The position numbers were made by a program, and so were the translations under genes. From contig CM114271.1 in NCBI GenBank assembly GCA_050084515.1, positions 34,906,001-34,970,000 on the forward strand: DNA of 64,000 nt, in the 5' to 3' direction. The notes below the pieces were generated by a model. The model saw only the letters and a program-made list of their open reading frames with translations. It was not told where the DNA came from and made no database searches. Positions 5,701 to 49,181 of the stretch are shown in pieces; positions within the stretch are counted from its first letter, which is position 1; every line of letters begins with the position of its first letter. This stretch comes from Blasia pusilla (Eukaryota).

Positions 5701-8700
5701 TGGTCGCCCGGGGCACCGAGGAGAGATACCACGAAATCCAATAACGACGCACGAATGCCAGCCCGGCGTTTCTGCGAGAGGGCACCGATACGTAAACATA
5801 TGACGCGGAGATGAGAGGTTCTAATACACCGGACCGCGACATGAATGCATGAGCCCTCATGCTCATATTTGCCCCTTGATTCGAGCTTTAGGAGGCCTTG
5901 AATCTGACCCTAAACCTTCATGGTTGCGTCCGAACGTTAAGTTTTCTTTTTCCTCCTGCAGCTGACTTTCTAGTTGTGAATTGACTTTTCCTCTATGCCT
6001 ACGAAATGGCCGGTGATCTAGCTCATACTGTCGAACTTTTATCACACATCTACTACAATTTTCATATCGAATGACGTCGCAACCACCGCTCCATGGATGA
6101 TGCTTATTGAAATTACGCTATTGAAGCGTCCACAACGGTGACGTCACGTTCAAAGCACCCCGTAAGAGTAGAGCACAATTTGGGATGCGAGAGAGTTCTG
6201 TGTGCGAAAATGTACAGATCTCGATAGCTAGAAAGTTCATGTATGGGATCGAAACCGGAAGGCTGAAGTGTCGCCACCGTCAAAGGGTCGTCATGTTATG
6301 TGGCAGGGACTTTAGGAGGTAATCCCGTGTCATTCACGAACAGTCCGAGAGTCATTCCAGATCTGGACTCGCACGTGGACTCCGGATTTGGGTGACCAGT
6401 GATGTCGGAGGATAAGAGAAAGTGAGGATTTAGGTCAGAAGTTTTGACGAGGATCCCGAAAGGTCTTGAAGGTGGAAATTGGATTGAGAAATTGGGAAAT
6501 CATCACGATATCCGGGATCAGATTCTGAAGCTGGAACTGGATCTCGTAAACTGGAAAATTGTCACGACCGAACAAGGAACGAGTGCAGTCTCCCATCGAA
6601 GGGGTGAGCAATGAACCAGCATAAGTTTCCATCACGAGAGAAAATGATCCGTGCTACAATGTGAGAGGCAAGTCAAAGCAGGTAACAAGGAAATGGACAA
6701 GCCTTCTTGACGCTGTCCAACATTTTATATGGATTTTTTGAGTGTTCTAGTCTTTATGGTAAGTTTCGTAAGTAGATCACGAGAGCGTTCATGGGGATCA
6801 CCACATAGCAAGATAGGTAAAGTCAAAACTTTAGCAAGCTGTAAAGACGTAAGATGGGAGTCACGATTGGTAGATGAGACGATAGGCATGTTCTCAATTC
6901 CAGGGGTTGGGTTAGAAAATGTTGGGGAACAACTTAGGAGGCAATGAGTTAGTACCAAGACGAATGATTGTTAAGGATTGAGCATCATATGTCGGTATGG
7001 GGTGAAAGAAATTTTAGACATGACCCATCCGCCACTAGGCTTCTCTCATATACAATCAAAAATGATAATGATTATTATTATTGGAAAGTGTCTCTTCATT
7101 TTAACAAAGGTCTTTTATAGCAATAGAGTCGCCCGTTATGTGAGCCAATAAGATTGGTCAAATTCAATTATACACATAGGATGGGTAATTCAAAATCAGA
7201 CATAGTGGGATCAAGGATATCATGAATCTATGTTTACACTATGGTCCTTTTACAACCCCTATAATTATATGAGAATGTGGGGGAGAGGTAATGAATGTTT
7301 CACACCAAGGCTTGGATTAGAGCAAGGCCAAGTCTTCTATTTGGATTTTTTTAAGGACATCAATTTATGGACTAGTTATGGTAACCATGAAGAATTCAAA
7401 TAGATAATAGCTTACTTCAAAATGTTCTAATCTATAATAGAAATTTTGTTGGCCAATTTACCATTTCATCAATCCAATTCAAATATTATTTCTAACTATT
7501 GGCAAGTGAAATTGATTTGGCCCAAAAAATATGGTAAATTTTAGTATTGTATAAATTCGTTACAAACAAAACAAGAAAATTAAAACTTTGGATTTTATAG
7601 AATCCAAGTTGGAATAAGCTCCTATGAGGTTATAGTTGATGTTAATTATGGTGGGACTCTAGTAATTTATCTTATAACTTCTTGCACTTATCTTATTGCC
7701 TTCCCATAATAGAAAACTAGTATAAGTTGTACAATTCACAGGTTTATATTATCTCTCATAATTAATTTTCATAATTTTTGAGTGCCATTTAAATCAATTT
7801 TGAGGTATCCTATTGGTTTAGAAGGTGAGCGATCTCATTGGCTTAAAGTGCCAGGTGTCAAGAGGAGAAGAGTCTGTAAAATAAAGGGACATCTCCAATA
7901 ATATGATGATTTTAAAACATATTTCCTCTTTGGAAAGAACTCCACAGTGATATGAAAGCGATATATATATATATATATGTCAATCAAAGACTTCTAAGAG
8001 TAAGGAATAAAATTTAAACCTACAAGGTTGAAATCATAATCCTAGAATGAAATTCCAAGGGTAGGGTTGATAATCTAAGTTATGGCTAATTTTTTTCTCT
8101 CTCATAGTGTTGTGGCTCTGTCGCTATTGCAATGTGGCTTCCGAGACTCGAAGAATTGCTCTAAATGTAGTAGTGTTTGATAGAACTTATCCCTTAGGCA
8201 TGTTCCATTGTATCTGGCATTAAGAGACTTTGGCCCAACTTATGACTCGATCACTTCTATCAACTAGTATAACTATTTTGAAATATATTCATTTGTGATA
8301 TCTCCATCTATTCTCAACGAGGGATAGATAATTGGAATCCATCTATTCTTCTTTGTACATTTATTCTCTTTATTTTAGGTCTTTTTGCTAACCTGATATT
8401 ATCTCTGTTTGTTTTTTCATCCATCATATTCTTCATTCAAAGTCTCCCATCCATAAGGCTAGCTTCTATCCTTTCCTATTCCATCCCATTCCCTGGATCT
8501 GATACTTTATTCATGCTCCATCAACTATTCTACCTATCCATTTTGTGGATACATCGAGTGGCACTACCTTCTATTATTTTGATCTTGTACTAAATTTTCT
8601 TGCCATGAACGCAACTATGAATTTCAAGTTTATCCCAATTCTCCATCCCTATCTATCCATGAAATGGGGCATCATGGATAGATAGGGATATGATCATGAT

Positions 8701-9130
8701 GGGGATTTCATGGGTTTGATCTTAGGTCCATATCTCAATCCATTTCACATTCATAAGTTCCATTATGGCTTATCCATAGAGAATCCAGATCCCAAATCCT
8801 TCCCGAGAATTCTTTGAGCATGAATCATAGGGACACAAAATAATATCCCATTATTTAACAATGTTGGGCATAGAATCATTATCATGATACTAATACTTTT
8901 ACAATCATACAATGCATTGAGTGAGAGGGACCGACCCTCTCTAGAGTGCAATCCTTCAAAGAGGATCCGTTTGTCTTTTTTCTCTAGTTCTCGTTTGGAT
9001 GTCCCCTCCTTGAGAGTCCTCATCTACGCTAGCCTTCCCTTTTCAAAGAATGGATAGCATGGGAGGAAGGTTCATATATTCCTCTTCTCATATCCTATCT
9101 CCCAACCATATCAAAATTTCATTCCATATT

Positions 9131-10415
<1,285 letters not shown>

Positions 10416-10619
10416 GTTGGTGATAAGGTCCCTCTAACTCAAGATATCCATCCATCCTTACCTACCATAACTTACATCTCTAGGAAGCTAAGAGCAAAAA
10501 GTTCAGATACTTATATGGCTTGATCGTTAGTCGCCTTCTTATCATCCATGTCACAAACAAAAGTATGAATCAGATTCTATGTCTATCCATTCTTTACTAT
10601 ATGTACATCTGAGGCATAT

Positions 10620-12278
10620 TCATTGTTCTTGAGAAAACTTACTGAAAGGTGGCGTCAGACATGCCATGTGCCACCCTCTCGAACATCCATCATAGACTAG
10701 CATAGTGGATGCAGCACGGGAAAAATCACACAACATACAACGCAAGTATGTAGAGACTATTGTTGAGCTTAGATAAAAAAATACCATCAATGTTAGGAAG
10801 GTGACATGACGCACAATGACATACAGGGTCCTTCCAAACCATACCATCCTTTCCCTCTAATAAGAGAACATCAAATGACAACACATCACACACTCTCAAG
10901 AAAAAATCCCCTACATTCACATCCAATGTCATAGGTGCCATTTATTGCAAGTAGATATTTTCTCCCTGATAAAACCTTTAGATCTTCGGTCGAAAATCAC
11001 CTCTCCAAATAATTGCATACTTCAAAGTATCCCGATGCTATGCAATCACCAATTGCAAGTTCTCAAACGCCATGGGCATAACGCTCCTAAAAAACTCAAC
11101 CCTATGAGAATATGCTCACATCTATACATCAGGGTCATCAAGATTCAACACCTCGCTAGTATCGCAACAAATAGCTATAGGTAAATTAGACTCTCGACCA
11201 TAAAGCAAAAAATACGGTGAGAAAAAAGCTAAGGGTACGATGTATGCTTGCTAAATCTATATCCCATCGCTAATCACAAAAATTGTAGGTCCCAATCTCC
11301 TAGGTGATCTCTTTGCAAGTCATACTTGCACAAATCTCTCTTCACCGTCAAAACAACTCTCTCAACTAGACTATCCGCCTCAAGATGATCTCGCGAAGTA
11401 GTGGGATAGTTTATCGACGCCCAATCACACAAGATCTAAAAACTCCCCAAAAAATTCCATACCCTGGTCTATCAACACCTTAGTTGGTCTGCCATAATGA
11501 CTCAACACTCAATCCAGGAAGATATATACTACTCCCTCACTCGCTTTGTCTGGCAATGCAGCCAACTCTATCCACTTTGAGAGGTGCTCGACCATCACCA
11601 ACACATAGAGACTATGATGCTAAGTCAAAGGTAAAGGTCCTACAAAATCCAGAATCCATCTATAGCCTAAATCCATGATCGATAGTGGATGGAACTATGG
11701 AGTAAGAGCATTGAATGAATTCCAGACTCGATCATGCACTATGTATCCAACAATAAATTGTTGAAAGTCAGTCTGCATGCCTCGACACCCATACTATATC
11801 TAGAACAAGTTGTACGTCTACTTCATTCCAAAGTGACCAAACTCCACATAGGCATGCTTCACCAAACATGCTCTCTGCGAAGGATGAGGCACTATGCGTA
11901 CTCTACCATCCTCCTAAACTCACAACATATGCATCCTCTTCCCACTGAAACCGTTTGGCTCGATGTAGCATCCAATCCCCCTCTCTAGCACCTACTATGC
12001 TCGTGATGCTACAAGTACGTAAGAGCGAAAAGAGTACTCCATCCTCCTGAATATCTCAACCACTTGTCATCTTCTCATCGGCCTCTAGATCTGAGGACTC
12101 TTTGTCGGTCCTCGCCATTCAAGTCCCAACACTCTCGCTCTACGTAGCCAACCATCCCAAACAGGTCGATGCGTGCTATCCCACACCATATCCTTATCAC
12201 TCTCTCCATACCAACGAGCACTAGTCACATCTCGTTGACTTGAGCATGGGTTACAGATGAACCCATTTGTATCCAGGT
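10620..12278 (-). pseudogene. Decayed Gypsy DDE integrase plus C-terminal PHD finger
   Basis: Minus strand across frameshifts: (N)LDTNGFICNP RNase H/IN linker, GHFGMK (HHCC), WILDFVGPLPLT, VLIDQGMEF, DSLVERVV, then LRCMLCDFSRAASTMLVYDGCSRGWHMACLTPP. Confidence 0.85.
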
Positions 12279-12323
12279 TGTCACGTCTTTTAGGATAGAT
12301 CGATGAGCTCTAGTAGAGCGCCT
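12279..12323 (+). repeat. First 45 bp of repeat A (left end of a younger nested copy)
   Basis: tgtcacgtcttttaggatagatcgatgagctctagtagagcgcct; left flank aggt (ACCT on the minus strand). Confidence 0.85.
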
Positions 12324-13053
12324 TGTCGTGCACATACACATCGCTACACAACATACATTGCTGTCACCAAACACACACAAAAACACGCACAATCCCATGC
12401 TAACTCATGGCATCCAAACAACGAGACAAGAAGTACCAAAATATCTCCAATAAAATAAGTTCAAATCTCTCTCACAACACTATAATTCTCACATGTGTAC
12501 ACTCTCACATGTTTCTCTCAATATCAAACCAAACCCACTCTCGTGATGAGAGGTTTGGGTTACACACACAAGGCAAGCAAGACCATAGCTCCTCAGCCTC
12601 ATGCCAAGAGGTTCAACAAAGAGAGAATGAGCTCTCAAGCTCTCTCTCCTTGAGGTATACCTCTCCTCTCCCCCAAGTTCTCTCCATGGTAACCTATGCT
12701 GCCAAGTCACCTCCTTGGCTCTTGACCTGATGTAGGAGGTCAAGGGTCACTTACCAAAAATATAACATCGATCGCATACTCAAAAGGATACTTACCTAAA
12801 ATAGTAAGTTCCTCAATATAGCTCCAAATGAGCCGAAACGAAGGGAAAACCTGCTCTCTCAAGTTTCTCGGGGCCTCAGCAGGTCATCCTCGATCTACTT
12901 AGTATGTCCACTGCTACTCACGAAGGGGCTCTACTAGATCTCACCGATCTATCCTAAGAGATGTGACAGTTGTCGTGCACCACGGGCAGAACCACACAAC
13001 ATACACCGCAAGTCTGTAGGAACTATTGCTAAGCTCAGATCAACTATATTGTC
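12324..13053 (-). mobile_element. Nested 3' end of a third copy: PHD fragment / deleted B1 / spacer / A2 / B2
   Basis: B 12324-12450, A 12451-12968, junction gtgaca-gt-tgtcgtgca 12963-12979. This is fused through a tgca microhomology to PHD-region sequence at 12980-13053. Confidence 0.85.
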
Positions 13054-13888
13054 AGAGTTCCGCGGGGAGTTTCAGGCCTTGCGTGATCAGACACTGATTG
13101 ACCACTACACTACTTCACGAGATCATCCTAAGGCGGATCGACTAGCGGAGCGGGTTGTGCAGACGGTGAAGAGATGACTACGCAAGTATGGCTTGCAGAG
13201 AGGTCACCTAGGAGATTGGGACCTCTAGTTGCCGTGGTTGGCGATGGGATACAGATTCACCAGGCACGCATCCTTAGCGTCTTTCTCACCATACTTGATT
13301 TTGTATGGCCGAGAGCCAGATTTACTTGCGGCTATTCGTTGAGATGTTGAACCTTGATGACCTTGATGTATGGATGCGAGCATGTTCTCAAAGGGCTGAA
13401 TTATTCCGGAGAGTAATGCCCATGACGTTTGAGAACGTGGCGATTGCGCAACATCGGGATATATTGAGGTATGCGACTATTCGGGGATGTGGTCATCGAC
13501 CTACTATCCGGAGGTTCCATCAAGGACACTATGCTTACATATAGCAGACGGCATCCACGACGTTGGATATGACTACCGGGCGTTCCATCTTGAGAGTGCG
13601 TGAGGTTTTACCATCAGGTGTTCTCTTATTGGAGGGACACGATGGTATGGTTGGAAAGACCATGTGCGTAACTATGCGCGGTGTCACCTTCCGAACATCG
13701 ACAATACAGTTTATCCGAGCTTAACAGTAATTCCTGCAGGCTTGCGATGTATGTTGTGTGGTTCTGCCCATGGTGCAGCCACTATGCTAGTCTGTGATGG
13801 ATGTTCGAGAGGATGGCATATGGCATGCTAGATGCCACCTCTCACTAGGATTCCTCAGGGAGGACGGATGTGTCCCAAATGTACATAG
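13054..13888 (+). pseudogene. Decayed Gypsy integrase C-terminal half plus PHD finger
   Basis: EFRGEF...HPKADRLAERVVQTVKR...FSPYLILYGREP, then CMLCGSAHGAATMLVCDGCSRGWHMAC*MPPLTRIPQGGRMCPKCT* (Cys4-His-Cys3). Confidence 0.9.
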
Positions 13889-14055
13889 AGTAGGTAGTTC
13901 TATATTCCGACTTGTGTATGTTACATGGATGACAAGAAGGCGACTAACGATGGGGCCACATGAGCATCCAACCTTCTTGCTCTTAGTGTCTGAGAGATGT
14001 ATGTCATGGTAGGTAAGGATAGATGGCTATCTGGAGTTAGAGGGATCTAACCATC

Positions 14056-14069
14056 AGGTAGGGGGGCGA
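14056..14069 (+). promoter_or_regulatory. Polypurine tract immediately 5' of repeat B
   Basis: aggtaggggggcga directly precedes ttggagatatttt. Equivalent degenerate tracts occur at ~10405 and ~1250 on the minus strand. Confidence 0.75.
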
Positions 14070-14197
14070 TTGGAGATATTTTGGTACTTCTTGTTTCGTT
14101 GTTTGGATGGCATGAGTTAGCATGGGATCGTGCCTGTTTGTGTATGTGTTCGGTGACAGCGATGTATGTTGTGTAAGCGATGTGTATGCGCATGATA
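14070..14197 (+). repeat. Terminal repeat B (B1)
   Basis: ttggagatattttggtac...gcgatgtgtatgcgcatgata is the reverse complement of 12324-12450; followed by AACT. Confidence 0.9.
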
Positions 14198-14720
14198 AAC
14201 TGTAGAGTTGGATCTAAAGAAGGTGGAAGCTAGGATTCAAAACATACCACACTTCCTAGTTTTTTACTTTGTCCGAGGCGATAATGATCCCATCTCAGTA
14301 CATGGATGTTAGTTGTGCGCAGGCATGACGGGAAATGGAAGAATTGAGTAGTTGATCCGGTGTTGAGTGTGTTGTTGGCATGGGGCCGACTACTGCTATA
14401 TAAGATGCCCCATAGTTTGCAATAGTTGCATTGGGAGGTACGTCCGCCAAGTTTTTTTGGCTGGTCGCTACGCTATGTGAGTGTGGAAATGGTATCACTG
14501 CCTCATGTTCCAAGGTGGTTGTAGAGGAGGTGGTGGACTTGCCTTTCGAGCCTATGCTCGGGTTGTCCATCTCAGATTCACGGCAAGTTGCAACTTCTAA
14601 GATTGCGGTGATGCCCACTAGACTCGTGAGAGAGCATGTCATGGTGTCTCCACAAGTTGTTTTGTTGGATAATTGGGGAGAGATCTTCCAATTGGTAAGC
14701 CTAGGAGGTAGGGAGTGTTA

Positions 14721-15095
14721 ATCTTGTTGGATTCAAGAACGCAACCCTTGATGTTGGGGAAAGCTGGGTTTACAAGATTGGGCTTGACAAGGGCCAATGC
14801 GGAGTATTGCCCATTCATGATACCAAAATCCTTACGTGGAGCGGGCACGATACAGTTTATAACCTGACATGAGGTCATGGTGAGGATTTGACCAGACATC
14901 CTTCAGATGAGTCCGTGGTGAGAGCCAAGGCGATAATGATCGATGTCGAGTCTTATGATGTTTTGGTTGGAGGAGCAGTGTTGTACTTAGTAGGATTAGA
15001 TTTGGATTACAGGAAGGAGTCACCATCCTACGGACCAAGATGGAATTCGGGTGATGGGCAACTTAGCTCGTTACTCATTCGGTTTATGAGTGGAG
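14721..15095 (+). pseudogene. Retrotransposon aspartic protease relic
   Basis: ILLDSRTQPLMLGK (DSG mutated to DSR) ... SYDVLVGGAVLYLVGLDLDY. Confidence 0.75.
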
Positions 15096-15439
15096 TGATT
15101 GAGCAACGATAATGAGAGATGGCGACTCATGCAGCATTTAGCAGCGCGATTATGTGGCCTAAGGATTTGATTGAGAGTCGTGTCCACAGAGAGTAGACAC
15201 CCGTGACCAACACCCCTATGGAGAGGAGTGCTATCGTGGGAACATCATTCTATGAAGGAGAGGTGCCTTTGTAGGGCTTGAGTGGGACGCTTTGACGCTT
15301 GGTGGAAGAGCATGTGCAGATGGTGCATGTGGAGTGAGATGTTTGCCTTAGAGCGTGACGGGTTAGAGGAACCTGAGGTAGTTGGGAGTGCTACCATGTC
15401 TCCCTTGGACACCTTATCCATTGTATGGCGCATCCTAGA

Positions 15440-16030
15440 TGAGGGTATTCAAGTGTTGGATCTCTTTGAAGGGATCAACACTAGGTTGGCTAAAGTTTTG
15501 CAAGTAGGAATCCGTGTGCAATAGTACTTGTACATGAAGCTTGATGAGGTTGTAAGGCACTTCTTACTTCAACATGTGGTGAAGTTGGGCCTCCATTTTC
15601 GTGACTTTGTTATCTGCGTCGGACGTGTAGGGATACTAGAGTTCCTTACTAAGGGAAATTTCTTTGGTGGGGGCACATGAATCGAGTCGGGTGGGGATTC
15701 TTGATTTGGTCATTATAGGTTGGCCATATTAGGGCCAATCAAGTATTGGAAGAGCTAGTGGTTTAGTGCACAAATTGTCTGGGTTATTTTGGAAGAGGAT
15801 CTTGCGATACTCGTAGGCAGTTAAAAACATCATTCCTGATCTCTAGCTTACATTCTGGATGCGTACCAATCTTAGGTGATTTGCGGTCATGAGTGGTGAA
15901 GAGTGCACATTCCGTTCGTACATGAGTCGACCATGCAATATTTTAGGATGCGGCAAGCGTGGGTTCACAAGCACATCGCTGGCGTCTATAGTGGACCAAC
16001 TTGGTGCTACATGAGGTGTTGTGCAACGTT
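15440..16030 (+). pseudogene. DNMT3-like C5 cytosine DNA methyltransferase domain embedded in Gypsy pol
   Basis: Ordered motifs: I IQVLDLFEGI (~15447-15476); II YLYMKLD; IV DLVIIGWPY*GQS (15703-15741, from GWPCQG); GL...SGLFW; VI AYILD/..PILGD (~15845-15880, frameshifted ENV); VIII DAASVGSQAHRWRL*WTNL (15947-16003; compare DNMT3A DAKEVSAAHRARYFWGNL). Motif X is not recognisable. Confidence 0.85.
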
Positions 16031-16444
16031 GGATGAGGTTACAACATGTCGATCACGGTTGTTATACTTGTGAGCCCCATGCCTACCAATACGGCCCATA
16101 AAATGGTTGGGGGCGAGACCCGAGAAGATCGACATATCATGGATGAGCAGGAGAGACACCCTTGGACTTCTTGGAATGCTTTGCAGGTATGCTGGGAGAT
16201 AGTAGCCATAACATCGAGGATGGCATATGATCCTCCAGACCGAGGACATGAGAGTTCTAAGTTAGCTATAGGAGAGCAATGGAGTGTTATTGTTCGAGAT
16301 GGGGTTGCACCATCGCAAGCACGGATACTCATGCCAAAGAGTCCTACAATAGTCACGATGGAGACTTGGGAGCCAAATATAGACGTTGAGTTGTCTAGAG
16401 GAGATCAGCGTCGAATACCTTAGTTCCTTAGGAGTCATAGGAGT

Positions 16445-18028
16445 TTTTTTACATTCAATATGCATGATTTTGGTACATTGAAGGGTCGGAGGATTTGCAT
16501 TGAGTTGTCTAACAATACATTGATCTTCCGATGACCCAAAAAAAAGATTGAATACGGGCAAAGTCCGTGTCCGCAGACTTGACATGTCCATGTCCGTGGA
16601 CTTTTGTCCGTCCTTAAGATGAACATATCTATGTGGGTGCGGGTACCGACAGCCCGCACCTCAACCCGCCCCACCCACAATGTAGCCCCGGGTTTGAGCC
16701 GCCCACTAGGCCACATCTAGTCTAAGAAGCGTCACCAGCTTTGTAGTCGGCATTGGCCTGCGTAGGGCGGGCTATGGTTTGTGGTTTGCATAGGGTCAGT
16801 TCAGGCCAAGGCGGGCTTAGGGCGCGCCAATTTTTGCCCGCCTCCCTTAATTTGAGCGTACACCAGTTCCCATCCGGGCCATGGGGGTACCAAAAAGATC
16901 TAGGCGGGGGATCTATTTGGCATGTCTGTTTCTGTGCAACCATGCCTACAAGTACATTGATATGGAGAGGGTCCTCAAAGCAAGAGCCATGACTTTTTTG
17001 GAGCAACACTAGTGGAGATGTCGCATGAAGAATATGCATCTGCCACTATTATGCCCACAAAGAATGATGTTCATCGCAAGTGGACAGATACCATTAACTA
17101 TTTCAAATTGGAAGACAAGAAGAATACGATATTTTGGGGCATCAATCCTCACAAGAAGGACTATTTTGTTCAGGTGGCAATTCTTACCATTTTCGTTAAG
17201 GACCGCACGTGGAGAGATCGAGAGGGTAATGGATAAGATCTTGGCAGGTCTGGATTTTGCTAGGTGTTATATTGATGACATCGTAGTCTTCAGCGCAACA
17301 ATTGAGGAGATTTGGACATTTGGAGGAGATATTTCGACAATTACAATTACATGGGTTAAAGCTACATCCATGTAAGTGCAAATTCTTTTATGACCAGATT
17401 GAGTACTTGGCTCATAGGATATACCCATGTGGCCTTGGTGTTCAATAATGAAGGTAGAGGCTATCTCACGCATTCCACGCCTTATAGATATGAGTCAAGT
17501 TTGCGCATTTATGAGACTAGCGCGCGAACTTTTATAGACGGTATATAAAGGGTTTTAGTTTGATTGCGAAGCCACCAACCTTGTTGGCCAAGGTGGATCA
17601 CAAGTGGCACTGGGACAATGAGCAAGAGAAAACATTCCAACTGCTCAAGGATAGGTTGACGTCCATGCTGATGTTAAGGGGACCTATCGAGTGTGTCTCT
17701 TTGAGTCGCATACAGATTTGAGTATGTTGTAACAGTGCTCACCCAACATAATGTTGAGGGTAGAGAATTCATGATTACTTATACTAATCGCTCGAACAAT
17801 GCTGTAAAGGCGAAATATTGCTCGTTTGGGACGAGTGCTTGATTGTAGTATGGATCATCGCACATTTTAGGTATTATTTATTCACAAACCCTTTTACCAT
17901 TATTATTGATATCAACCACTTAAATGGTTGATGGAATTTGACTAGCTTAGAGGGAATCTTGCGTGGTTGGCTCTATCGTTGTAGGAGCATGATTTTCAAA
18001 TGGTGAATCGAATGGGGATGCTGAACCT
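16445..18028 (+). pseudogene. Gypsy reverse transcriptase and RNase H relic, interrupted at ~16538-16944
   Basis: FR*P|YKYIDMER, LVEMSHEEYASATIMPTK, MDKILAGLDFARCYIDDIVVFS (YIDD 17268-17279), HTD and YTNRSNN RNase H motifs; ends MLN at 18028. Confidence 0.9.
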
Positions 18029-18669
18029 TGTCGTGTGCATACACATCGTTACACAACATACATCGTTGTCACCGAACACACACAAACACGCATGGTCTCA
18101 TGCTAAGTCATGCCATCCAAACAACGAGACAAAAAATACCAAAATACTTCCAATGAAATAAGATCCAATCTCTCTCACAACACCATAGTTCTCACATGTG
18201 TGCACTCTCACATATCTTTCTCAATGACAAACCAAACTCATTCTCCTAATGAGGGGCTTGAGTTACATTCATAAGGCAAGGGACCATAGCTCCGCTATTC
18301 CGTGTTAAGAGGTTCAACTAAAAGAGAATGAGCACTTAAGCTCTCTCCTTGAGATATACCCCTCCCCTCCTCCCAGACTCTCTTCATGATAACTCATGCT
18401 CCCAAGTCACTTCCTTAGCTCTTAACATGACGTAGGAGGTCAAAGGATCACTTACTAAAAATAGAAAATTGACCATATACTCAAAATGGTATTCATATAA
18501 AATAATAAATTTCTCAATATGGCTACATATGAGCCGAAACGAAAGGGAAACCTGCTCTCTCAGGTTTCCCAGGGCCTCAATAGGTCATCTTCAACCTCCC
18601 GGATCTATCCTCCACTAATCACGAAGGCGAGCTCTACTAGAGCTCATTACTATCCTAAAAGACGTGACA
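18029..18669 (-). repeat. A+B terminal repeat unit (641 bp)
   Basis: tgtcgtgtgc...gacgtgaca; flanks acct (left) and agtt (right). Confidence 0.92.
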
Positions 18670-20270
18670 AGTTGCTTCACGAATAACATATAACTTGCTC
18701 CATCCAAACAGGATCCTTCACGTCCTTGAATGCTTCATATGATGTTGATGCTATTAATATGACATCGCGTATCCTCAATGCTATCGCGATAATCTATTGT
18801 TATAAAAACTCTATCTGAGCAACCATCCCAACCTCACACCCCAGATCTCCCTCAACTCCTTTACGTGGTAGATCTCTACTTCCACCACAGACATACCCAC
18901 GAGAAAATCCAACCCCACATCCCCTTGACACACAAGCTCTAGGCCAACCGGGACCTCTAGTGACCTCTCTAGCCCTCGATCTGGATGTAAACTCAGGGTG
19001 CAAGCTAAAACAACCAGTGCAAGTATAACCATACCGCTAGCAATTGTTACATTGAAATACCCCTAATGCATGCCCATCCACTCTTCCATGCTAGGACACG
19101 CGTCCACTTTCTTGACAATGGGCTCCATCACATGCCAAAAAAATTAACTATTGGCATCTTTTGCTGACCCGCCTATGATGACATGGGTTGTGGTGGCACA
19201 TGCTTGCGATAACCTCCCTGAGCTCGTGATACCATATTCCTTTTTTGCAATACACATTGTTACACTTGTGATGTAGGAAATTGTGATTACTTTCATGTGT
19301 AACTCATGTCTACTACTCTCTCCTCGACCACATTGCGTTCACTGCACTCTGCCATCTCAAAGATATTTCTCAACATAGGTGAGGTGTGCATTAATAATAC
19401 CATATCCCTCACCTACATGTATCATTCTAATATCCCAAACCATGATTGAACAATCTAGGCCTATTTCATCCCTTAAATGACTAATCAAACAACACATGTG
19501 AGTAAATTCCTCCCACAAACTCTCCCTTATGTGCCTATGGAAGTTATGTGCACCGTATCTTCTTTGTCCATAACCCCTAGTTATTCCTCTGCAACTCTAT
19601 GAAGAACTCAACCATAGGGTTGAACTTAGGACGAATCCGCCTGGATGACACAAGTGCCCTAATCCAACTTATCCCTCATTGACTCTCACTAGTCGCAAAG
19701 GAAATAACCTTCCCTAGCTGCTCTTCATCTTGAAATGGCTCAGTCCATGACACATATTATGTGTTATAGTAGAGTCTCCATGCATCAATCTTGATCGCGT
19801 ATCTACGGGAGAACTAATGATAATCGCCCATGAACTTCCCCTCTAGGTGTTGGAACATCCCGTAACATGTTGTAAAAGGATTGAACTTCGAAATCTCTAA
19901 TCCTTTACGAAAAAAACACCAACTCATAAACTATGAAGTCATACAACTCTATAGTATCCATTGCTCCCGAAAACCTACTCGATCCCCGACCCAATTTTCC
20001 ATCTAGTTCACCCAAATGGTGGGATTTCACCAACACCCTCACCCTTGTTTAAGAATGAAATAGAAGGACGTCAAGACGGTCCTTCACGTGGAAACTCTCG
20101 AAGCCTCGTACCATTTTACGTATAACCTCTAAGACTACTCTAAAGCACACCACCTCATCTCTCAAAGTCTCAAAAGAACATCGTGATGACCCTTATGCCC
20201 CCTCACATGATCATTCTCAATCTCACGATTAATTACTCAATCACTCAAACTAAACATATAACACTTACTC
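18670..20270 (-). mobile_element. Very decayed gag/protease relic of another LTR retrotransposon
   Basis: Minus-strand LEDTRCHI-like protease motif near 18770 and a Cys knuckle-like remnant near 19250. It appears to continue across the inversion into 14202-14270. Confidence 0.4.
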
Positions 20271-22205: not shown

Positions 22206-25200
22206 CTATGAGCGCAGTACCACTCCACCAGTGATCCTCCAGCCGCCTTCTCCATGCTGTAGTTCATATCTGGTTGTGTATGTACTTCGATATGAATCTT
22301 TATGTTCTGGATTCTTGTTGTCAAATAGACGAGCTGCCTCTTGCAAAGTTGCTTCAACTATTGCTCTTCTTCCGTCATCACTCACAGTAACACTATCAAC
22401 ATTCAATCCTACAAGTCTATACTCCCAAAACCAGCCATTTCTTGCCACTTCATTCACGCGTTCAGTCCAGCTTTCCAGCATCTTCCCCTCCAGCACCTGA
22501 GCCCAATCCAAAGAAAGTGTCACCACTGAAGTCAGGCTTTGTGGGTAACAATAATGCATTGCAAGCCAAACAAGACTAACCTTGACCGTGAGGTGGACAA
22601 GGAAAGAGCAAGTAATCGATCACAATGAATTTACCTCGGACAGATGGCCAACAGAATGGGTGGCACCGAGAGCTTGTGCTTTAGCAGTCTGCCATTTCCG
22701 GACTATCTGCTCAGCCAGTCTTGCATCCATTTTGGCCAATTCCACTGCCTGCCGTCCCTCCAACAACCCTGAAAGTATCAATCACTGTCACTATTTTGGC
22801 TTGAAGTGGTACAAATCAAATTATGTCAGGCCAGCACAGTTCAGTATTGCTAGGGCATAATCTCCCAAACAAGCCACAATTACAACGTGAACGCTCAACG
22901 TATTGTTTTCTATCAGACCTGATGAGGCTGGTGCTGTAGTAGCAATGGGTGCGCTCTCAACAACATTGTTAGCACTAGGTCGTAAAGGCAGGAACCGCAA
23001 CCCAGTCATAACCAGGGCCCCAAAAACTATCCCAGAGCATGCAATCTGCAGAAGGGTCAAACCACCCTGACTAGCTGTTTGGACAGATAAATTACTGTGT
23101 CCACTTGCAAAATTTCCACTCTCCCCGATATCACCCCAAGCGTGCCCTGGAGGTCTAGTTGAGAGAATTGAAGCAGATGGGCCAAATCCCAAAGGAGATG
23201 ATGTCTCAGGATCCTGAAATTCAGTGTCTGCACTCTGGTGAGATCCATATTGCTCAAAATCCTTGTCCGGTGGATCTGTGGCATACTCCACCTGGTTGGC
23301 CATACCACTTGCTGTACTTTCTATGACACCAGCTCGTTTACCAAGTGGGAACACTTTCTGCAGTGTTGACATTGCAGATGCTTTGACATTGTCTATTGCT
23401 GCACCAATCCTGGAAAGAGCAGTAGAAGATCCCCCTGCTGTTGTTTCCCACTGTTCTAAAATACTTATCACCTGAGGATCATCATAGTAATCACCCAGCC
23501 TGACTTGCAAACTTTCTGTATTCCGGAAGGTGGGGAATACCACCTCTGCCAGCCACCTTTCCAAAAGCTTGCATAAACCAGGAAGCAAGTCTCCATCTTC
23601 ACTTCCCTCCGAATGTGAATACACAAATTCAATTACAGCAGGATCCCTGTACTCTTCAGTGCCATCTTGCAACCCTAAACACGCCATTGACTGGTCAACT
23701 TCGCCCATCAGAAGCCAACACATAGCTCTCTCAAGACTGTGGTCCAGTGGTGCACCAAGTTCACCATCTGACTCCTGTGAGGCTTGCAACTGCCAAAACA
23801 GCTCATCTGCCTTCACAACAAAAACTGGCTTGTTGGCAATGAAGCCTTCCGCTACATGAGCCAGAGCAACTCCATACACTTCAAAGCTTTCTGCTGGGAC
23901 ATTATCTGGTGTTGAGTCCCACAAAGCAACCTGAAAGATTTCAATATGAGTATTTCTTACCTTACTATAATGACCATCTTGATACCTCAGAAACTAGCAT
24001 ATGTATAATTATAGATAGCACATGTGGCAGGTATTGAACTAACTACTAGAACTCATGAGCTTGCAGTTTCTACCAATTGATCACCACTACACTTGACCCG
24101 CATATAGACCATCTGCACATTGAAGCCCAAGCACCGAGTAGTAATCTCCAAGTCAAACTTTAGTTTTCCCCTCATGTCTACCAAGGACATGCAAGGCCAC
24201 AGACCTATAAACGAAGTAAAACTGTACCTGCTCTGCTGCTGTCATGGAAGAAAATGCATCTTTGATGAACTGTTCCCGTGTGAAACCTAGAATAGGTGCG
24301 GCTGCACCTCCCTCACCTACAGCCCACAAGATGCTTCGCAGACCTTGCAGGCCTTCTTCTCTTTGTGAGGCATGTTCTTTGTCTAAAGGCAACGTGAGCA
24401 GTTCCAATACACACCGTGGTGTTAATTCCTCCAAGGTCTGCTCAATCTGTTCCTGCAACCCTAGGGCCAGACTGCTTCCTCCTTCTTCCTGGAAAAATAA
24501 AAATAAACACCTTTTATCATCCAGCAATCAAAACTACATATTCGGTTTCAGATCCTTACCAGCATGAGAAACATAAAGCAAACAGATCAATACAACTCTG
24601 GAAAAAACAGAACTTTCACGGAGTTCACGACACAAGACCTAGATCCAGGATTCTAGACTTGATACATTAAGTCAAGAGACTTAATGCAATTAAGACACTA
24701 AAAGTATATCCTATAGCCTCGTTATTTGTACTCTTAAAGCTTTCCTTGACTTCTTTTGTGCTGGCAGCATGAGATACATGGTTCAAAGGTTTCCAAGGGA
24801 TTGATAGTCCATTAATTGGAAAACCATGGATACAAAGAGACATCTGAAGATGTAGCTCGTTTTATTCTTTAAAAAATGCCTGCAGCAACTGCGATCGATG
24901 ATCAGGGCATCTTGCTGTTCCTGTTAAGACTTTCACAGGAAACTCAGAATGAGCGTGGAACGAGAGAGAACAGGGTTTGTGGAGTTCAGAATCAGGGGAG
25001 TTCAGCCATGGGGCAGAGAGGATTCTATCATAATCTGTTTCAAGGTCTGGTCAAATAGATATTTCTAGGATTGATTTTGGGCTAGGTAATAAATTATTTG
25101 ACGTAGTCTGCCACTTTCACAGATAACCTTCCTTACTCCAGAATTAGTGAGTCGACAAGATCAAATTTCAACCACGAATTGGGATACCTGGCTAAGCCCC

Positions 25201-39174: not shown

Positions 39175-41493
39175 AAATCCTTGCTGAACCTGAACTTGGG
39201 ATCGTAGAAGATCTGGACGTTTGAGAAGAACTCAAGCAAGGAGACCTTGATGCTTGAGGAGGAACGCAAGAGACGAGGAGGAGATATGAGAAAGCGAGGA
39301 CTCGCAAATGGTGACCAAGGGCGAAGAACCAAGGAAGCCGCAAGTCAAATAAAAAACGCCGAGAGATGAATTAATGACCGACCACAAGCCAGAGGAGGAG
39401 ATAGCGACTCCCAAAGTGTTGAGTCCCAGACATGAGGATGTCCCAAACGTGAATCCTTCTGCAGGGCCTTCGGATCCAAACTCAAACCACCCGGCCTTTT
39501 ATATCCAAATGATGGATTTGATGAAGGTGATGGCAGACTAGAAGGCCCAATAGAGCAAGGTGATCGTAGAACTCAAGTCGAATGGAGCCTCTAGTTCCGG
39601 CAAGAAGCTTTGTAAGACAAATTTTCCAATGCCATTCATAGGAATGGGGCGTTCTCAGAAAGTGAGCGAGTTTCTAACAGAACTCGAACTAAGCGCAAAG
39701 GGCAGAGGAGCAGGATATGGTGATTGTAGTGGTCACGTTTATGAAGGATCACGCTCTCCACTGGTGGACGGCTCACCGCAAAGAACATCTGGGACATGGA
39801 AGAACTTTGAGTTGGGAAGAGTTCAAGGGGTTGATTGGTAACTGATTCACTCTGGAATATCATGAGTATCGCGACGGCATGGAGTTTGTGAGGTTGCGCC
39901 AAAGCGGATCCCTTAGCGCTTATGAGCGAGAGTTTAGTGCCCAAATGAGCTCACTTTCCACGGATGAGTTTACAAAGAAGGTGATCTTCTTAAGTGGACT
40001 CAAGCCGAGTGCCAGAAAGGTCCTCTTTTGTATGCCTCACATTCCTGAGACGTGCGCACAGCTCTTGAGGCTAGCGAAGCGGATAGGGGACGATGAAGTC
40101 CAAAACCAAAAACCCTTTGAGCCGAAATTTTTTTCTAAGTTATCGAAAAACAAAGGGGCATCCAAGAGGGTTTGGAATGGGGGTGAGCGCAACCACGGAG
40201 GGTCTCTTGCCCCAACGGCGAAACGAGTGGAACTCAACGCGAAGCCAAGAGGGTCGTTGTTCCCAAAGTCAGCAAATGCCAAAGTGATTTGCTACAATTG
40301 TGGCAAACCCGCGCATATGGCTAAAGAATGTGTGAGGCCCAAGGTTAGTAAACCGAGTATGATTGCGTTTTCTGCTAAGCACTTATCAGCGGAACATCTG
40401 GATACATCTCTCCAAGTCACCAAGAGAACGCCCAATTTGGTTTACATAGGATGCAAGATCGCTGATCGCGATGTGATGTTGCTCGTTGATACAGGTGCTT
40501 TGCACTCATTCTTGAGCCCGAGAATCATGAAGGCATTGGAATTGCCAACCACTAAGGCGGATGAACCCATTAGGGTAGGATTCGCGGGAGGCAAGTCCCA
40601 CCAGACCTTAGAGTTGGTTTTAGGGCTATTTGTGGGATGCGGAGTATTCGAGTTGAAGGAGAATTTCACAGTTTGCGACATGGAGGGAATTGATGGAGTC
40701 TTGGGGAACACGTTCTTGGATGCATATGAGGTGGAACTTAGGCAAAGACCTTTGAGGTTGAGCGTCTTGGTTAACGGCAAATGGAAGGATGTCAAATTGG
40801 TTCGTGAGGTTCCTAGAAAGACGGAGTTGGTGAACACCATCACGAGGACGAGTTTGACCGAGTTAGAGGAAGGATTCCTTTGCTTGATGAGACAAGTAGA
40901 GGATGATGCAAGTGCGAGATGCAGAGATCAAAACTCAACTTCAAGGGGAATCCGTGAAACATTCAAGAGAGTTGTGAAAGAAGTTAGAGATGTGTTGACT
41001 AAGGAGCTTCCGATTGAGTTGCCACCACATAAGGCGGTTAATCATAAGATAGAGGTGATACCCGGATCTCAACCACCTTCAAAGGCGCCATATAGGTTGA
41101 ATCAAGAAGAACTTGCAGAGTTGAAGAAACGAACTCCTAGAGAGGGATTAAATCCAAACTAGCAAATCACCTTATGGAGCGCCCGTCCTCTTTGTGCAGA
41201 AGAAGGATGGAAAGTTGAGACTCTGTGTAGATTACCGGGCGCTGAATAAAGTGACGATAAGGAACAACTATCCTCTTCCGAGGATGGATGACCTCTTTGA
41301 TTGATCATCAGGTGCCAAGTATTTCAGCCGAATTGACCTGAAATCAGGATATTATCAGATTCGGATTACCGAAGCGGATGTAGAGAAGACAGAGTGTAGG
41401 ACGAGATACGATTTGTTTGAGTTTGTGGTAATGCCTTTCAGTCTTTGCCAACACAACATGGACCGAGGAAGTGGATAAGGCGTTAATCCGAGT

Positions 41494-42129
41494 TGTCGTG
41501 CGCATACACATCGCTATACAATATACATCGCTGTCACCGATACACACACACACAATCCCATGCTAACTCATGGCATCCATACACAGAGGCGAGAAGTACC
41601 AAAATATCTCCAATAAAGTAAGATCCAATCTCTCTCTACACCATCTCACACCATAGCTCTCAAAGGTGTGCACTCTCTCTCTCATGTCAAACCAAACTCA
41701 CTCTCCTAATGAGAGGTTTGGGTTACACTCACAAGGCAAGGGACCATAGCTCCGCCGCCTTATGCCAAGAGGTTTAACAAAGAGAGAATGAGCTCTCAAG
41801 CTCTCTCTCCTTGAGGTATACCCCTCCCCTCTCCCAAGCTCTCTCCATGGTAACCTATTCTCCCAAGTCACCTCCTTGGCTCTTGACCTGATGTAGGAGG
41901 TTAAGGGCCACTTAACAAAAATAGAAAGTCGATCATATACTCAAAATGGTACTTACCTAAAATAGTAAGTTTCTCAATATGGCTCCAAATGAGCCGAAAC
42001 GAAGGGGAAACCTACTCTCTCAGGTTTCTTGGGGCCTCAGTAGGTCATCCTTGACCTACTGAGCCTGTCCTCCACTACTCACAAAGGCGCTCTACTACAT
42101 CTCACCGATCTATCCTAAAAGACGTGATA
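41494..42129 (-). repeat. Solo A+B terminal repeat with 4-bp TSD GAGT, inserted in the chromovirus pol
   Basis: gagt|tgtcgtgcgc...gacgtgata|gagt. Removing the insert and one GAGT restores KALIRVKEILSQEPLLKL in frame. Confidence 0.95.
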
Positions 42130-48736: not shown

Positions 48737-49181
48737 TGTCACGTCTTTTAGGATAGATCGGTAAGATCTAGTAGAGCGCCTTTGCGAGAAGTGGAGGACA
48801 GGCTCAAGAGGTCAAAGATGACCTATTGAAGCCCCGGGAAATATGAGAGAACAGGTTTCTCCTTCGTTTCGGCTCATTTGGAGCCATATTGAGGAACTTA
48901 CTATTTTAGGTAAGTACCATTTTGAGTATATGGTCAAATTTCTATTTTTGGAAGTGACCCTTGACCTCCTACATCAAGTCAAGAGCCAAGGAGATGACTT
49001 GGGAGCATAGGTTACCATGGAGAGAGCTTGGGAGAGGGGAGGGATATACCTCAAGGAGAGAGAGCTTGAGCTTTATTGTCTCGTTGTTTGGATGCCATGA
49101 GTTAGCATGGGATCATGCGTGTTTGTGTGTGTGCTCGGTGATAACGATGTATGTTGTGTAGCGATGTGTATGCGCACGACA
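48737..49181 (+). repeat. A+B terminal repeat unit with internal deletion
   Basis: tgtcacgtctttt...tgcgcacgaca; ~200 bp spanning the A/B join is missing at ~49071; flanks gaga/cata do not match. Confidence 0.9.

Follow-up and report, generated by a model that had tools for sequence, protein, structure and literature searches.

A probable dead copy of a Ty3/Gypsy retrotransposon family with a DNMT3-type methyltransferase domain between protease and reverse transcriptase

The window, meaning the whole 64,000-nucleotide stretch of DNA that was analysed, contains at 14449-18035 a fragment of a retroelement, whose parts are listed in Table 1 together with neighbouring pieces of related copies. The whole fragment is collinear with positions 5450-9140 of L168, a metagenome locus of the same family (tblastn with the L168 read-through frames), and this chain moves the limits given in the preliminary description, 14721-18028, outwards on both sides. 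The protease frame of L168 reads VLLDSGAQPLMLGK, with the active site DSG, which in the window copy has decayed to DSR (LLDSR at 14724-14738). At the other end, the reverse transcriptase (RT) remnant is only weakly recognized by Pfam RVT_1 (E 0.036 and 0.21), and the RNase H remnant matches RT_RNaseH_2 at E 7.3e-4 and RT_RNaseH at E 2.2e-3. This copy is of Ty3/Gypsy type and is dead, rearranged, truncated at its 5' and 3' sides and internally deleted: a fossil without function. The host gene in the window is ARC6.

Table 1. Parts of the element fragment and of neighbouring copies of the family (window positions; MT, methyltransferase; A and B, terminal repeat parts)
Feature	Position	Strand	Basis or remark
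3' half of another copy: RNase H end, integrase, PHD finger, B, A, B	9135-12315	-	matches L168 9093-10797
Second terminal-repeat unit copy	12321-12972	-	similarity to 18026-18674
Integrase core C-terminal part, PHD finger, 3' repeat B (14069-14198)	13052-14198	+	matches L168 9959-10994
gag-end remnant	14449-14712	+	matches L168 5450-5728, 31% identity, in collinear chain (tblastn)
Aspartic protease remnant	14697-15292	+	matches L168 5735-6328, 40-46% identity
Decayed DNMT3-type C5 cytosine MT domain, only motifs I to VIII	15327-16021	+	tblastn of P0014
Deletion junction, about 136 codons gone (target-recognition region, motifs IX and X)	16021-16052	+	P0014 residue 241 at 16021, residue 378 at 16052
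Conserved linker, MT domain to RT	16052-16543	+	matches L168 7466-7909
About 430 bp without L168 counterpart, insertion or divergent sequence	16544-16975	+	L168 passes directly from 7909 to 7937 in collinear map
RT remnant	16976-17513	+	matches L168 7937-8614; YIDDI at 17268-17282
RNase H remnant, C-terminal side cut off	17525-18035	+	matches L168 8621-9140
Terminal-repeat unit (B + A) of about 650 bp, TG...CA ends	18026-18674	-	truncates fragment; 80.5% identical to 12321-12972

C5 cytosine methyltransferases share a series of motifs, of which motif I has the form FxGxG, motif IV contains PC, motif VI ENV and motif VIII RxR, followed by motifs IX and X. The open reading frame P0014, a 449-amino-acid frame directly upstream of the RT in L168 (6335-7681), served as the reference for reading these motifs in the decayed copy. 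Motif I is DLFEGIN at 15459-15479 in the window and DLFGGIN in P0014. Motif IV, GWPCQGY in P0014, has become GWPY*GQ at 15718-15738, with the catalytic PCQ lost through a change of Cys to Tyr and of Gln to a stop (CCATATTAG at 15724-15732). In motif VI, which is ILENVP in the relative, the Asn codon is short of one base, leaving ILD at 15852-15860 and, after 2 nt, VP at 15863-15868; motif VIII reads QAHRWRL*W at 15968-15994 where P0014 has RAHRPRLWW. Motifs I, IV, VI (broken) and VIII thus follow one another in order on the + strand, with motifs IX and X deleted. The preliminary description had placed motifs I, IV, VI and VIII correctly and in this order, with the protease upstream of them and RT/RNase H downstream, and its reading of PCQ as decayed to PY* is borne out by the codons.

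When P0014 was compared with the whole window by tblastn, it gave three collinear high-scoring pairs (HSPs) in frames 3, 1 and 2, the first covering residues 9-113 (E 1.1e-15) and the other two, residues 101-173 and 189-241, having a linked E of 1.2e-19; the 64 kb held no comparable match elsewhere. Eight stops lie within these three HSPs, and the frame shifts between each pair of them. Residues 242-377 had no HSP in the region of the fragment at E<=10, and at the junction, which corresponds to L168 7057 to 7466, only 30 nt remain.

The significance of the MT remnant comes only through this relative. Pfam searches with three read-through frames of 14401-18302 (X at stops) returned weak RT and RNase H matches and no PF00145 match at E<=1; short pieces of the window gave none to PF00145 at E<=10. 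A phmmer search of the PDB with 15402-15800 and 15658-16170 found no DNMT match at E<=10, and 15658-16170 searched against 1.84 billion protein representatives matched a single spurious repeat protein, with no Klebsormidium sequence among the representatives matched. Searches for homologous proteins were also fruitless with the RT piece 17302-17721 (19 candidates) and with the ORF at 16037-16423 (75 candidates); in a protein atlas the latter was placed with an unnamed cluster at a score of 0.76, an uninformative result. Finally, a bacterial C5-MTase profile, built from 75 enzymes from loci fetched by a motif-IV pattern and run without filters, did not raise the MT region above background (best in-region score -2.4 bits, motif I stretch -5). 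Such results would be expected if the motifs were noise in a long spacer between protease and RT, and a 'motif X' picked out by eye near 16250-16340 (IGEQWSVIV) did prove false, the stretch aligning with the linker that follows the MT domain when P0014 is used in tblastn. Set against E values of 1e-15 to 1e-19 to a DNMT3-like member of PF00145, however, chance resemblance is extremely improbable.

The relatives, 80 metagenome loci belonging to the family, were found through the PHD-finger ORF that neighbours the fragment in the window. Since megablast of the window against these 80 loci gave no match, they come from another organism. P0014 matches PF00145 with E 7.1e-9 and 36 bits against a gathering cutoff of 22, a match that the window copy itself lacks. 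Seven of eight further loci matched the same family at E<=3e-4, six of the eight scoring above 22 bits, one 20.8, and one giving no match. Among the PDB chains found by phmmer with P0014, the best 29 of 35 matches are DNMT3A, DNMT3B or DNMT3C; the top one, 6brr_A (DNMT3A, E 5.4e-11), aligns residues 51-355 with residues 7-267 of the chain, that is, over the whole catalytic domain, while M.HhaI and a tRNA C5-MTase reached merely 1e-3. With a profile made from 26 natural open pieces the outcome was similar, 29 of the 31 matches being DNMT3A, DNMT3B or DNMT3C.

The motifs of P0014 are DLFGGIN (55), GWPCQGY (141), ILENVP (185), RAHRPRLWW (224), ERERAMGFP (324) and VLGQAMD (349); their order is not circularly permuted, as residues 51-355 run collinear with the DNMT3A chain. 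PCQ and ENV, for which the preliminary description had suggested looking in intact copies, are both preserved in the open L168 frame. In these respects the domain resembles animal DNMT3A, 3B and 3C (6brr, 5yx2, 6kda, 8tci), with a match over the whole domain, motifs I to X collinear, PC, ENV and a motif VIII of RxR type. It differs from them in being embedded in a retrotransposon polyprotein without PWWP or ADD, in having PCQ in motif IV where the aligned DNMT3A chain has PCN, and in the motif X region, which here contains GQAMD. Plant DRM (4onj), a DNMT3-related de novo methyltransferase, is a weaker match to the profile (E 9.5e-4): chain 4onj_A aligns only with residues 49-175, at its residues 229-349 (the part with motifs I-IV), whereas the family here is collinear with DNMT3A. 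An AlphaFold2 prediction for P0014, run together with 25 natural pieces, reached a pLDDT of 30.9, too low for use. At the level of sequence, these comparisons show the predicted MT domain of the window fragment to be homologous to an open natural DNMT3-like frame with all catalytic motifs, and the natural relatives, through PF00145 and the DNMT3A/B/C chains of the PDB, support the earlier view of a retrotransposon-borne DNMT3-like domain between protease and RT.

In L168 the order of domains is CCHC knuckle, DSG, MT, RVT_1, RT_RNaseH, Integrase_H2C2 and rve, the ORF after the MT matching RVT_1 at E 2.8e-31. The gag-protease, MT and RT parts lie in one frame, with one stop between each and no introns. 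The gag-pol of the family is very probably a single frame, in which the order of domains is gag (CCHC), protease, DNMT3, RT, RNase H, integrase (H2C2 and DDE core) and PHD finger. The MT was located upstream in 28 of the 37 loci having at least 3.7 kb of upstream DNA. As for the other nine, in L167 the MT abuts the integrase, one (L178) has undergone rearrangement, and the remaining seven are part of a group that is only about 55% identical. No locus has an ORF of at least 900 amino acids, the longest being the 449-amino-acid MT frame, and among the loci there is neither a full-length open pol nor a demonstrably active copy.

Only one copy of the protease-MT-RT stretch lies within the window, as might be expected if part of a host DNMT3 gene, or of a DNMT3 pseudogene, had by chance come to lie inside a single decayed element. 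Against such a one-off capture, the domain is found in 29 of the 30 close-family loci whose upstream DNA is long enough, at one and the same position and in frame with pol; absence of the domain from other family members, which the preliminary description would have taken as evidence against its reading, is not what these loci show. The family-wide presence extends to the window's own species, in which many contigs of four runs from two studies cover 30 of 30 bins, including the MT region. We therefore regard a one-off capture as very improbable. Among the bins within the MT-to-linker stretch 15296-16579, summed contig depth peaks in 16152-16365, and depth is low over 16544-16975, these figures being sums over contigs and not copy numbers. 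In run X1 the contigs differ from the window by 127 A>G and 99 T>C changes versus 30 G>A and 48 C>T, and the other three runs are alike. The corresponding excess of C-to-T and G-to-A changes in the window copy fits deamination of methylated cytosines after host silencing.

Direct repeats of 307-344 nt, about 8.7 kb apart and 91-94% identical, are present in L168, L172 and L147. A further repeat of 113-115 nt, B, lies on both sides of the 3' copy and is lacking at the 5' copy, giving the arrangement A1...B1-A2-B2 in place of a plain LTR pair. Over five loci, the split direct repeats are seen in L147 and L172, L154 has B...B only, L168 is cut by the locus end, and L149 has none. Split direct repeats of the form A1...B1-A2-B2 probably bound the elements of the family.

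The same repeats occur in the window. In the minus-strand copy at 9135-12315, in which Pfam recognizes rve (E 1.3e-3) and PHD (E 6.3e-4), B (10277-10395), A (9270-10285, with a CA microsatellite) and B (9135-9270) form B-A-B. The plus-strand piece at 13052-14198 contains a PHD finger (Pfam PHD, E 3.4e-7), and 14130-14195 within it matches L168 11017-11085, just ahead of the L168 3' repeat. In the unit at 18026-18674, the first 130 nt correspond to B at 14069-14198 in reverse complement, and additional copies of the unit lie at 41493-42130, 2182-2699 and 48737-49181. Contigs of all four runs link the end of 12321-12972 to its start with a 647-nt step, as expected for B-A-B. The possibility that the 650-bp repeat is an unrelated element was rejected, as the repeat proved to be a reversed terminal unit of the family itself. 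Taking domains and repeats together, we consider it very probable that 14449-18035 is a dead copy of a Ty3/Gypsy family with a DNMT3-type MT between protease and RT in gag-pol and with split direct repeats.

Rates of nonsynonymous and synonymous change were compared with those in shifted frames. Among 28 metagenome loci the MT has a median dN/dS of 0.64 in its own frame versus 0.50 in the shifted-frame control; as it is no lower than the control, there is no sign of recent purifying selection. For the RT among metagenome copies, the values are 0.40 in frame and 0.63 in the shifted control. When the window is compared with the loci, the pN/pS of the MT is 0.56 in frame versus 0.79 and 1.08 in the shifted frames, protein-guided alignments favouring in-frame matches. 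The in-frame signal appears only in this deep comparison, where it shows what is probably long-term constraint on the MT. The copies seen here are all decayed, in contrast to those of KnitGypsy-Dnmt3, for which Ka/Ks among copies is given as below 0.2 (PMC5890265).

It is conceivable that the MT module has lost catalysis and acted as a DNA- or chromatin-binding tether, steering integration together with the PHD finger. The missing signal of recent selection would agree with this, as would the inactivity of the KnitGypsy DNMT in yeast (PMC5890265) and the use of reader domains for targeting by retrotransposons described in PMC6673714. However, despite general decay the catalytic Cys is retained in 28/28 loci, FGG in 26/28 and ENV in 22/28 (PCQ being found in 19/28 and RE in 24/29), and every motif is present in the open L168 frame. 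A purely tethering module consequently appears improbable.

The preliminary description had pointed to DNMT3-carrying Gypsy elements of charophyte algae such as Klebsormidium, and rightly so: KnitGypsy-Dnmt3 of Klebsormidium nitens is described by de Mendoza et al. 2018 (PMC5890265). It was the only Gypsy-DNMT3 family found in our literature search, and for streptophytes the available text of a 2025 MBE paper and of a 2026 preprint cites the Klebsormidium case alone. As described by de Mendoza et al., KnitGypsy-Dnmt3 shares with the family here a Ty3/Gypsy pol, a non-rearranged DNMT3 inside the polyprotein frame, the lack of introns and a streptophyte host. In neither do the repeats appear to be plain LTRs, those of KnitGypsy-Dnmt3 being DIRS-like (Fig. 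4c legend, PMC5890265) and those here having the split arrangement. Unlike the charophyte element, relatives here carry the source names Marchantia polymorpha and Sphagnum fallax, and these names, attached to relatives of the integrase-PHD part, give indirect support to the proposed extension to land plants, as do a Marchantia gene model with MT remnants and the presence of ARC6 as host gene in the window. There is also a PHD finger after the integrase here, while the main text of PMC5890265 does not use the term 'PHD'. The family probably represents a land-plant addition to the elements of the KnitGypsy-Dnmt3 kind, the likeness being one of described architecture.

Two more distant systems share single traits. 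SymbioDIRS-Dnmt3 of Symbiodinium also has a DNMT3-type domain inside a retrotransposon Pol (PMC5890265), but it belongs to dinoflagellate DIRS elements, whereas the family here has an integrase (H2C2 and rve). As in chromoviruses and those other Gypsy elements whose integrase bears a reader domain, a chromatin-reader module stands at the C-terminus of the integrase; unlike in chromoviruses, a PHD finger replaces the chromodomain and a methyltransferase is added.

The bryophyte-type family may have captured a host DNMT3 independently of KnitGypsy-Dnmt3, as a case of recurrent acquisition and not of a lineage persisting from charophytes. Repeated independent captures are documented by de Mendoza et al. 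(PMC5890265), land plants retain DNMT3 genes of their own (PMC6453930), and the term 'PHD' is missing from the main text of PMC5890265. On the other hand, both families combine Gypsy domains with a DNMT3 inside pol, and the DIRS-type repeats of KnitGypsy-Dnmt3 (Fig. 4c legend, PMC5890265) may have a counterpart in the split direct repeats here. We put independent capture at somewhat under an even chance. It is rather unlikely, if still worth considering, that the Gypsy elements which combine a DNMT3, split direct repeats and a PHD-finger integrase belong to a single ancient lineage of streptophytes, passed from Klebsormidium-like algae to bryophytes and amplified there to high copy number. Were this single old lineage real, land-plant genomes would long have had, in mobile form, a second source of de novo methyltransferase, which could have shaped host methylation or swapped domains with host DNMT3.

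In active ancestors of the window copy, the MT module would have been made as part of Pol. A possible role for it, which we favour only tentatively, could be to methylate the element's own new cDNA at or around integration, a role that de Mendoza et al. put forward for retrotransposons with a DNMT. This idea draws on the SymbioDIRS-Dnmt3 domain, which methylates CG de novo in yeast (PMC5890265). The domain of KnitGypsy-Dnmt3 gave no methylation in yeast, a result its authors called inconclusive (PMC5890265), and catalysis by a Gypsy DNMT3 of the KnitGypsy kind is therefore hypothetical. Methylation of the element's cDNA, of a circular intermediate or of the target locus, as suggested in the preliminary description, is likewise speculative. 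The remaining probability would be shared by methylation of the neighbourhood of the integration site, a self-limited copy number and the tethering role with the PHD finger.

Now that this design, together with a PHD finger, is seen as an abundant repeat of a green-plant genome, with relatives in records named Marchantia and Sphagnum, methyltransferase-bearing retrotransposons can no longer be taken for a peculiarity of algae. Bryophytes, with their genomes, methylomes and transformation systems, can be used to test how a transposon profits from a silencing enzyme of its own. It also follows that DNMT3-like matches in plant genomes and gene models, for example MARPO_0060s0038, may be transposon remnants and not host genes. 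One Marchantia polymorpha gene model holds MT remnants that include WPCQ.

The fragment at 14449-18035 (+) is a fossil copy of a land-plant element of the Gypsy-DNMT3 type, whose family has split direct repeats and an integrase with a PHD finger. The stretch from 14.4 to 18.0 kb is without a long open reading frame (72 stop-to-stop frames of at least 60 amino acids overlap 10-24 kb), and protease-like, methyltransferase-like, reverse transcriptase (RT) and RNase H strings are visible by eye in three plus-strand frames. When the frames were read through with stops set to X, Pfam gave weak matches only, to RVT_1 (E 0.036 and 0.21) and RT_RNaseH (E 7e-4 and 2e-3), and none to PF00145; short pieces likewise gave none at E<=10. 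A phmmer search of the PDB with the two main methyltransferase (MT)-like pieces found no methyltransferase, an MT piece compared with 1.84 billion protein representatives had a single match, to a repeat protein, and word-based protein searches with two pieces had none. A profile of our own, made from 75 bacterial C5-MTases and run unfiltered on all six frames of the whole window, did not place the MT region above background. Because none of these searches recovered it, the methyltransferase claimed in the preliminary description is not demonstrable from the window copy alone.

An open PHD ORF of 75 aa at 13604-13831 has 12 protein matches (65-80% identity), which by their source names include Mp_2g13720, Mp_2g19240 and MARPO_0060s0038 from Marchantia polymorpha and BDL97_02G004000, with rve and PHD, from Sphagnum fallax; S. 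fallax KAH8943901.1 is a further member of one 90% cluster among these relatives, and every relative of the element that carries a species name is a bryophyte. The alignment of these matches, used as a query, yielded metagenome loci, of which the best 80 of 199 relatives (295 matched stretches) were used. None of the 80 loci is nearly identical to the window by megablast, and they therefore come from another organism; they share 64-72% nucleotide identity with its RT-RNase H and also align to 15397-15548, a stretch that precedes RT by about 1.8 kb.

One of these loci, L168, has an open frame of 449 aa (P0014, 6335-7681) as the counterpart of 15.3-16.0 kb; P0014 matches PF00145 with E 7.1e-9 (36 bits; gathering score 22), and the next ORF matches RVT_1 (E 2.8e-31). 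Assignment to PF00145 thus holds for this natural relative and not for the window copy itself (none at E<=10). Of eight other loci, translated with stops set to X, seven match it at E<=3e-4. DNMT3A, 3B or 3C are the 29 best of 35 PDB matches of P0014, led by 6brr_A (E 5.4e-11; query 51-355 on chain residues 7-267, motifs I to X aligned), while M.HhaI and a tRNA C5-MTase reach only 1e-3, all of which supports the DNMT3-like identity first proposed from the sequence. A family profile that combined P0014 with 25 open natural pieces of other loci had DNMT3A/B/C as 29 of its 31 PDB matches, and below them 4onj_A (E 9.5e-4; query 49-175 on residues 229-349 of the chain) and a chain of a tRNA C5-MTase (E 2.8e-3). 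4onj is a plant DRM, an enzyme with permuted motifs; those of the element family stand in DNMT3 order. P0014 reads DLFGGIN, GWPCQGY, ILENVP, RAHRPRLWW, ERERAMGFP and VLGQAMD, and so has PCQ and ENV intact in one open frame. An AlphaFold2 model of P0014 was unusable.

With P0014 as the tblastn query and the whole window as the target, the MT remnant was recovered in three frames (see table), with no other match of similar strength in the 64 kb. Motifs I, IV, VI and VIII are confirmed in the order originally described, as is the decay of the catalytic PCQ, which P0014 retains. Residues 242-377 of P0014 have no window counterpart and the residues flanking them lie 30 nt apart, so the target-recognition region and motifs IX-X have been deleted from this copy; a 'motif X' picked by eye was wrong. 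The fragment is collinear with L168 5450-9140 (end of gag, protease, MT, RT and a shortened RNase H), which bears out the placement of the MT between protease and RT/RNase H; its protease active site reads DSR for DSG.

Features of the fragment and its flanks (window positions; HSP, tblastn match to P0014)
Feature	Position	Strand or frame	Remarks
End of minus-strand copy: B, A, B	10277-10395, 9270-10285, 9135-9270	-	Same layout as loci
Second integrase/PHD copy, inverted	10.3-12.3 kb	-	
650-bp repeat bounding fragment	12321-12972 and 18026-18674	reverse	TG...CA ends; equals B + A
Integrase core remnant and PHD finger	13052-14198	+	Pfam PHD E 3.4e-7; just upstream of fragment
MT HSP	15327-15644	frame 3	P0014 9-113, 42% identity, E 1.1e-15
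Motif I	15459-15479	+	
MT HSP	15598-15810	frame 1	P0014 101-173, 38% identity, linked E 1.2e-19
Motif IV	15718-15738	+	PY* at 15724-15732
Motif VI	15852-15868	+	Broken, one base lost
MT HSP	15863-16021	frame 2	P0014 189-241, 53% identity, linked E 1.2e-19
Motif VIII	15968-15994	+	
HSP	16052-16207	frame 2	P0014 378-421, 33% identity, E 0.009

Among the 37 loci with at least 3.7 kb available upstream of the integrase (IN)-PHD match, the MT precedes that match on the same strand in 28; in the remaining nine, the MT of L167 adjoins the integrase with RT lost, L178 is rearranged, and seven belong to a group about 55% identical. In the close family the MT is present in 29 of 30 loci and is not the one-off capture that had been considered as an alternative. 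FGG is retained in 26 of 28 loci, PCQ in 19 of 28 (the catalytic Cys in all 28), ENV in 22 of 28 and RE in 24 of 29. At the first Arg of motif VIII (RPR), 19 of 29 loci now read His, Cys or Tyr, while seven keep RPR and three have RP*, and such changes are the expected pattern of CpG decay in a CGN codon. MARPO_0060s0038, from M. polymorpha by its source, contains two pieces of the MT module, one with WPCQ (BLASTP E 8e-13, 2e-13), and together with the relatives named M. polymorpha and S. fallax it lends indirect support to the suggested extension to land plants. The annotated protein (P0010, 410 aa) is chimeric and made up of transposon remnants, with an IN-PHD part before two DNMT3-like pieces, and gene models like it could be miscounted as host genes. 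The subfamily L185, L187 and L188, whose IN-PHD is only about 55% identical, appears to be one locus assembled three times; in L187, RT-RNase H-IN-PHD at 8058-10804 (+) faces gag and MT-like pieces at 12210-16394 (-) across a gap of about 1.4 kb, an arrangement that may be an inversion or two tail-to-tail elements.

In L168, gag (CCHC knuckle), protease (DSG), MT and RT lie in a common frame with single stops between them, and RNase H, Integrase_H2C2, rve and a PHD finger lie downstream of RT. L168, L172 and L147 have direct repeats of 307-344 nt at a distance of about 8.7 kb, and in L147 and L172 a repeat B of 113-115 nt stands on both sides of the 3' copy, giving the order A1...B1-A2-B2, in which the direct repeats are split as in some retrotransposons with a tyrosine recombinase. 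The window also shows this layout, and the end of the 650-bp repeat is joined to its start in contigs of all four sequencing runs. The repeat layout and the orientation of the pieces show the fragment to belong to a plus and minus jumble of one family and not to be an intact element. Repeat A of the minus-strand copy contains a long CA/TG microsatellite at 9300-9900, and a 78-nt inverted duplication (12976-13053 and 13700-13777, 87% identity) marks a palindromic junction of minus- and plus-oriented element pieces.

Every bin of 12300-18700, including the MT region, is covered at 80% likeness or more by contigs from four runs and two studies of the window's own species. These contigs differ from the window mainly by A>G and T>C (127 and 99 in run X1, against 30 G>A and 48 C>T), and the window copy therefore has an excess of G-to-A and C-to-T change. 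No ORF of at least 900 aa occurs in the 80 loci, where the MT frame is the longest. Among loci, the median MT dN/dS is 0.64 versus 0.50 in the shifted-frame control, so recent MT divergence looks neutral; RT gives 0.40 versus 0.63. Comparison of the window copy with the loci gives an in-frame pN/pS of 0.56 for MT (shifted frames 0.79, 1.08) and 0.38 for RT (0.94, 1.33); these values fit long-term constraint but come from protein-guided alignments.

PMC5890265 describes KnitGypsy-Dnmt3 of Klebsormidium nitens as an intronless DNMT3 inside Gypsy Pol, with Gypsy domains, a DIRS-element repeat structure (Fig. 4c legend) and Ka/Ks < 0.2. Methylation by its isolated domain in yeast was undetectable, a result that the authors regard as inconclusive, whereas SymbioDIRS-Dnmt3 domains gave CG methylation; methylation of the cDNA is proposed there to follow reverse transcription. 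KnitGypsy-Dnmt3 is still the only streptophyte case cited in passages of later papers (PMC12344493; 10.64898/2026.05.21.726589), and our literature search, with subscription journals and supplements outside its scope, found no report of a bryophyte Gypsy-DNMT3.

The window also contains, at 22206-23993 (-), an ARC6 gene for plastid division (PF23468 E 1e-62; IMS domain E 4.7e-26), which places the organism among green plants or algae. Two large exons of this gene have a CpG observed/expected ratio of 0.30, versus a window average of 0.60, and this would fit gene-body CG methylation. A better preserved second Gypsy element at 39846-42902 (+) has a 438-aa ORF with a CCHC knuckle and aspartic protease, followed by part of an RT at 41131-41466 and then by a 279-aa ORF with RNase H and Integrase_H2C2. 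Its protease-RT gap of only about 400 nt leaves no space for a methyltransferase, and at 41493-42130 a further 650-bp repeat copy breaks its RT.
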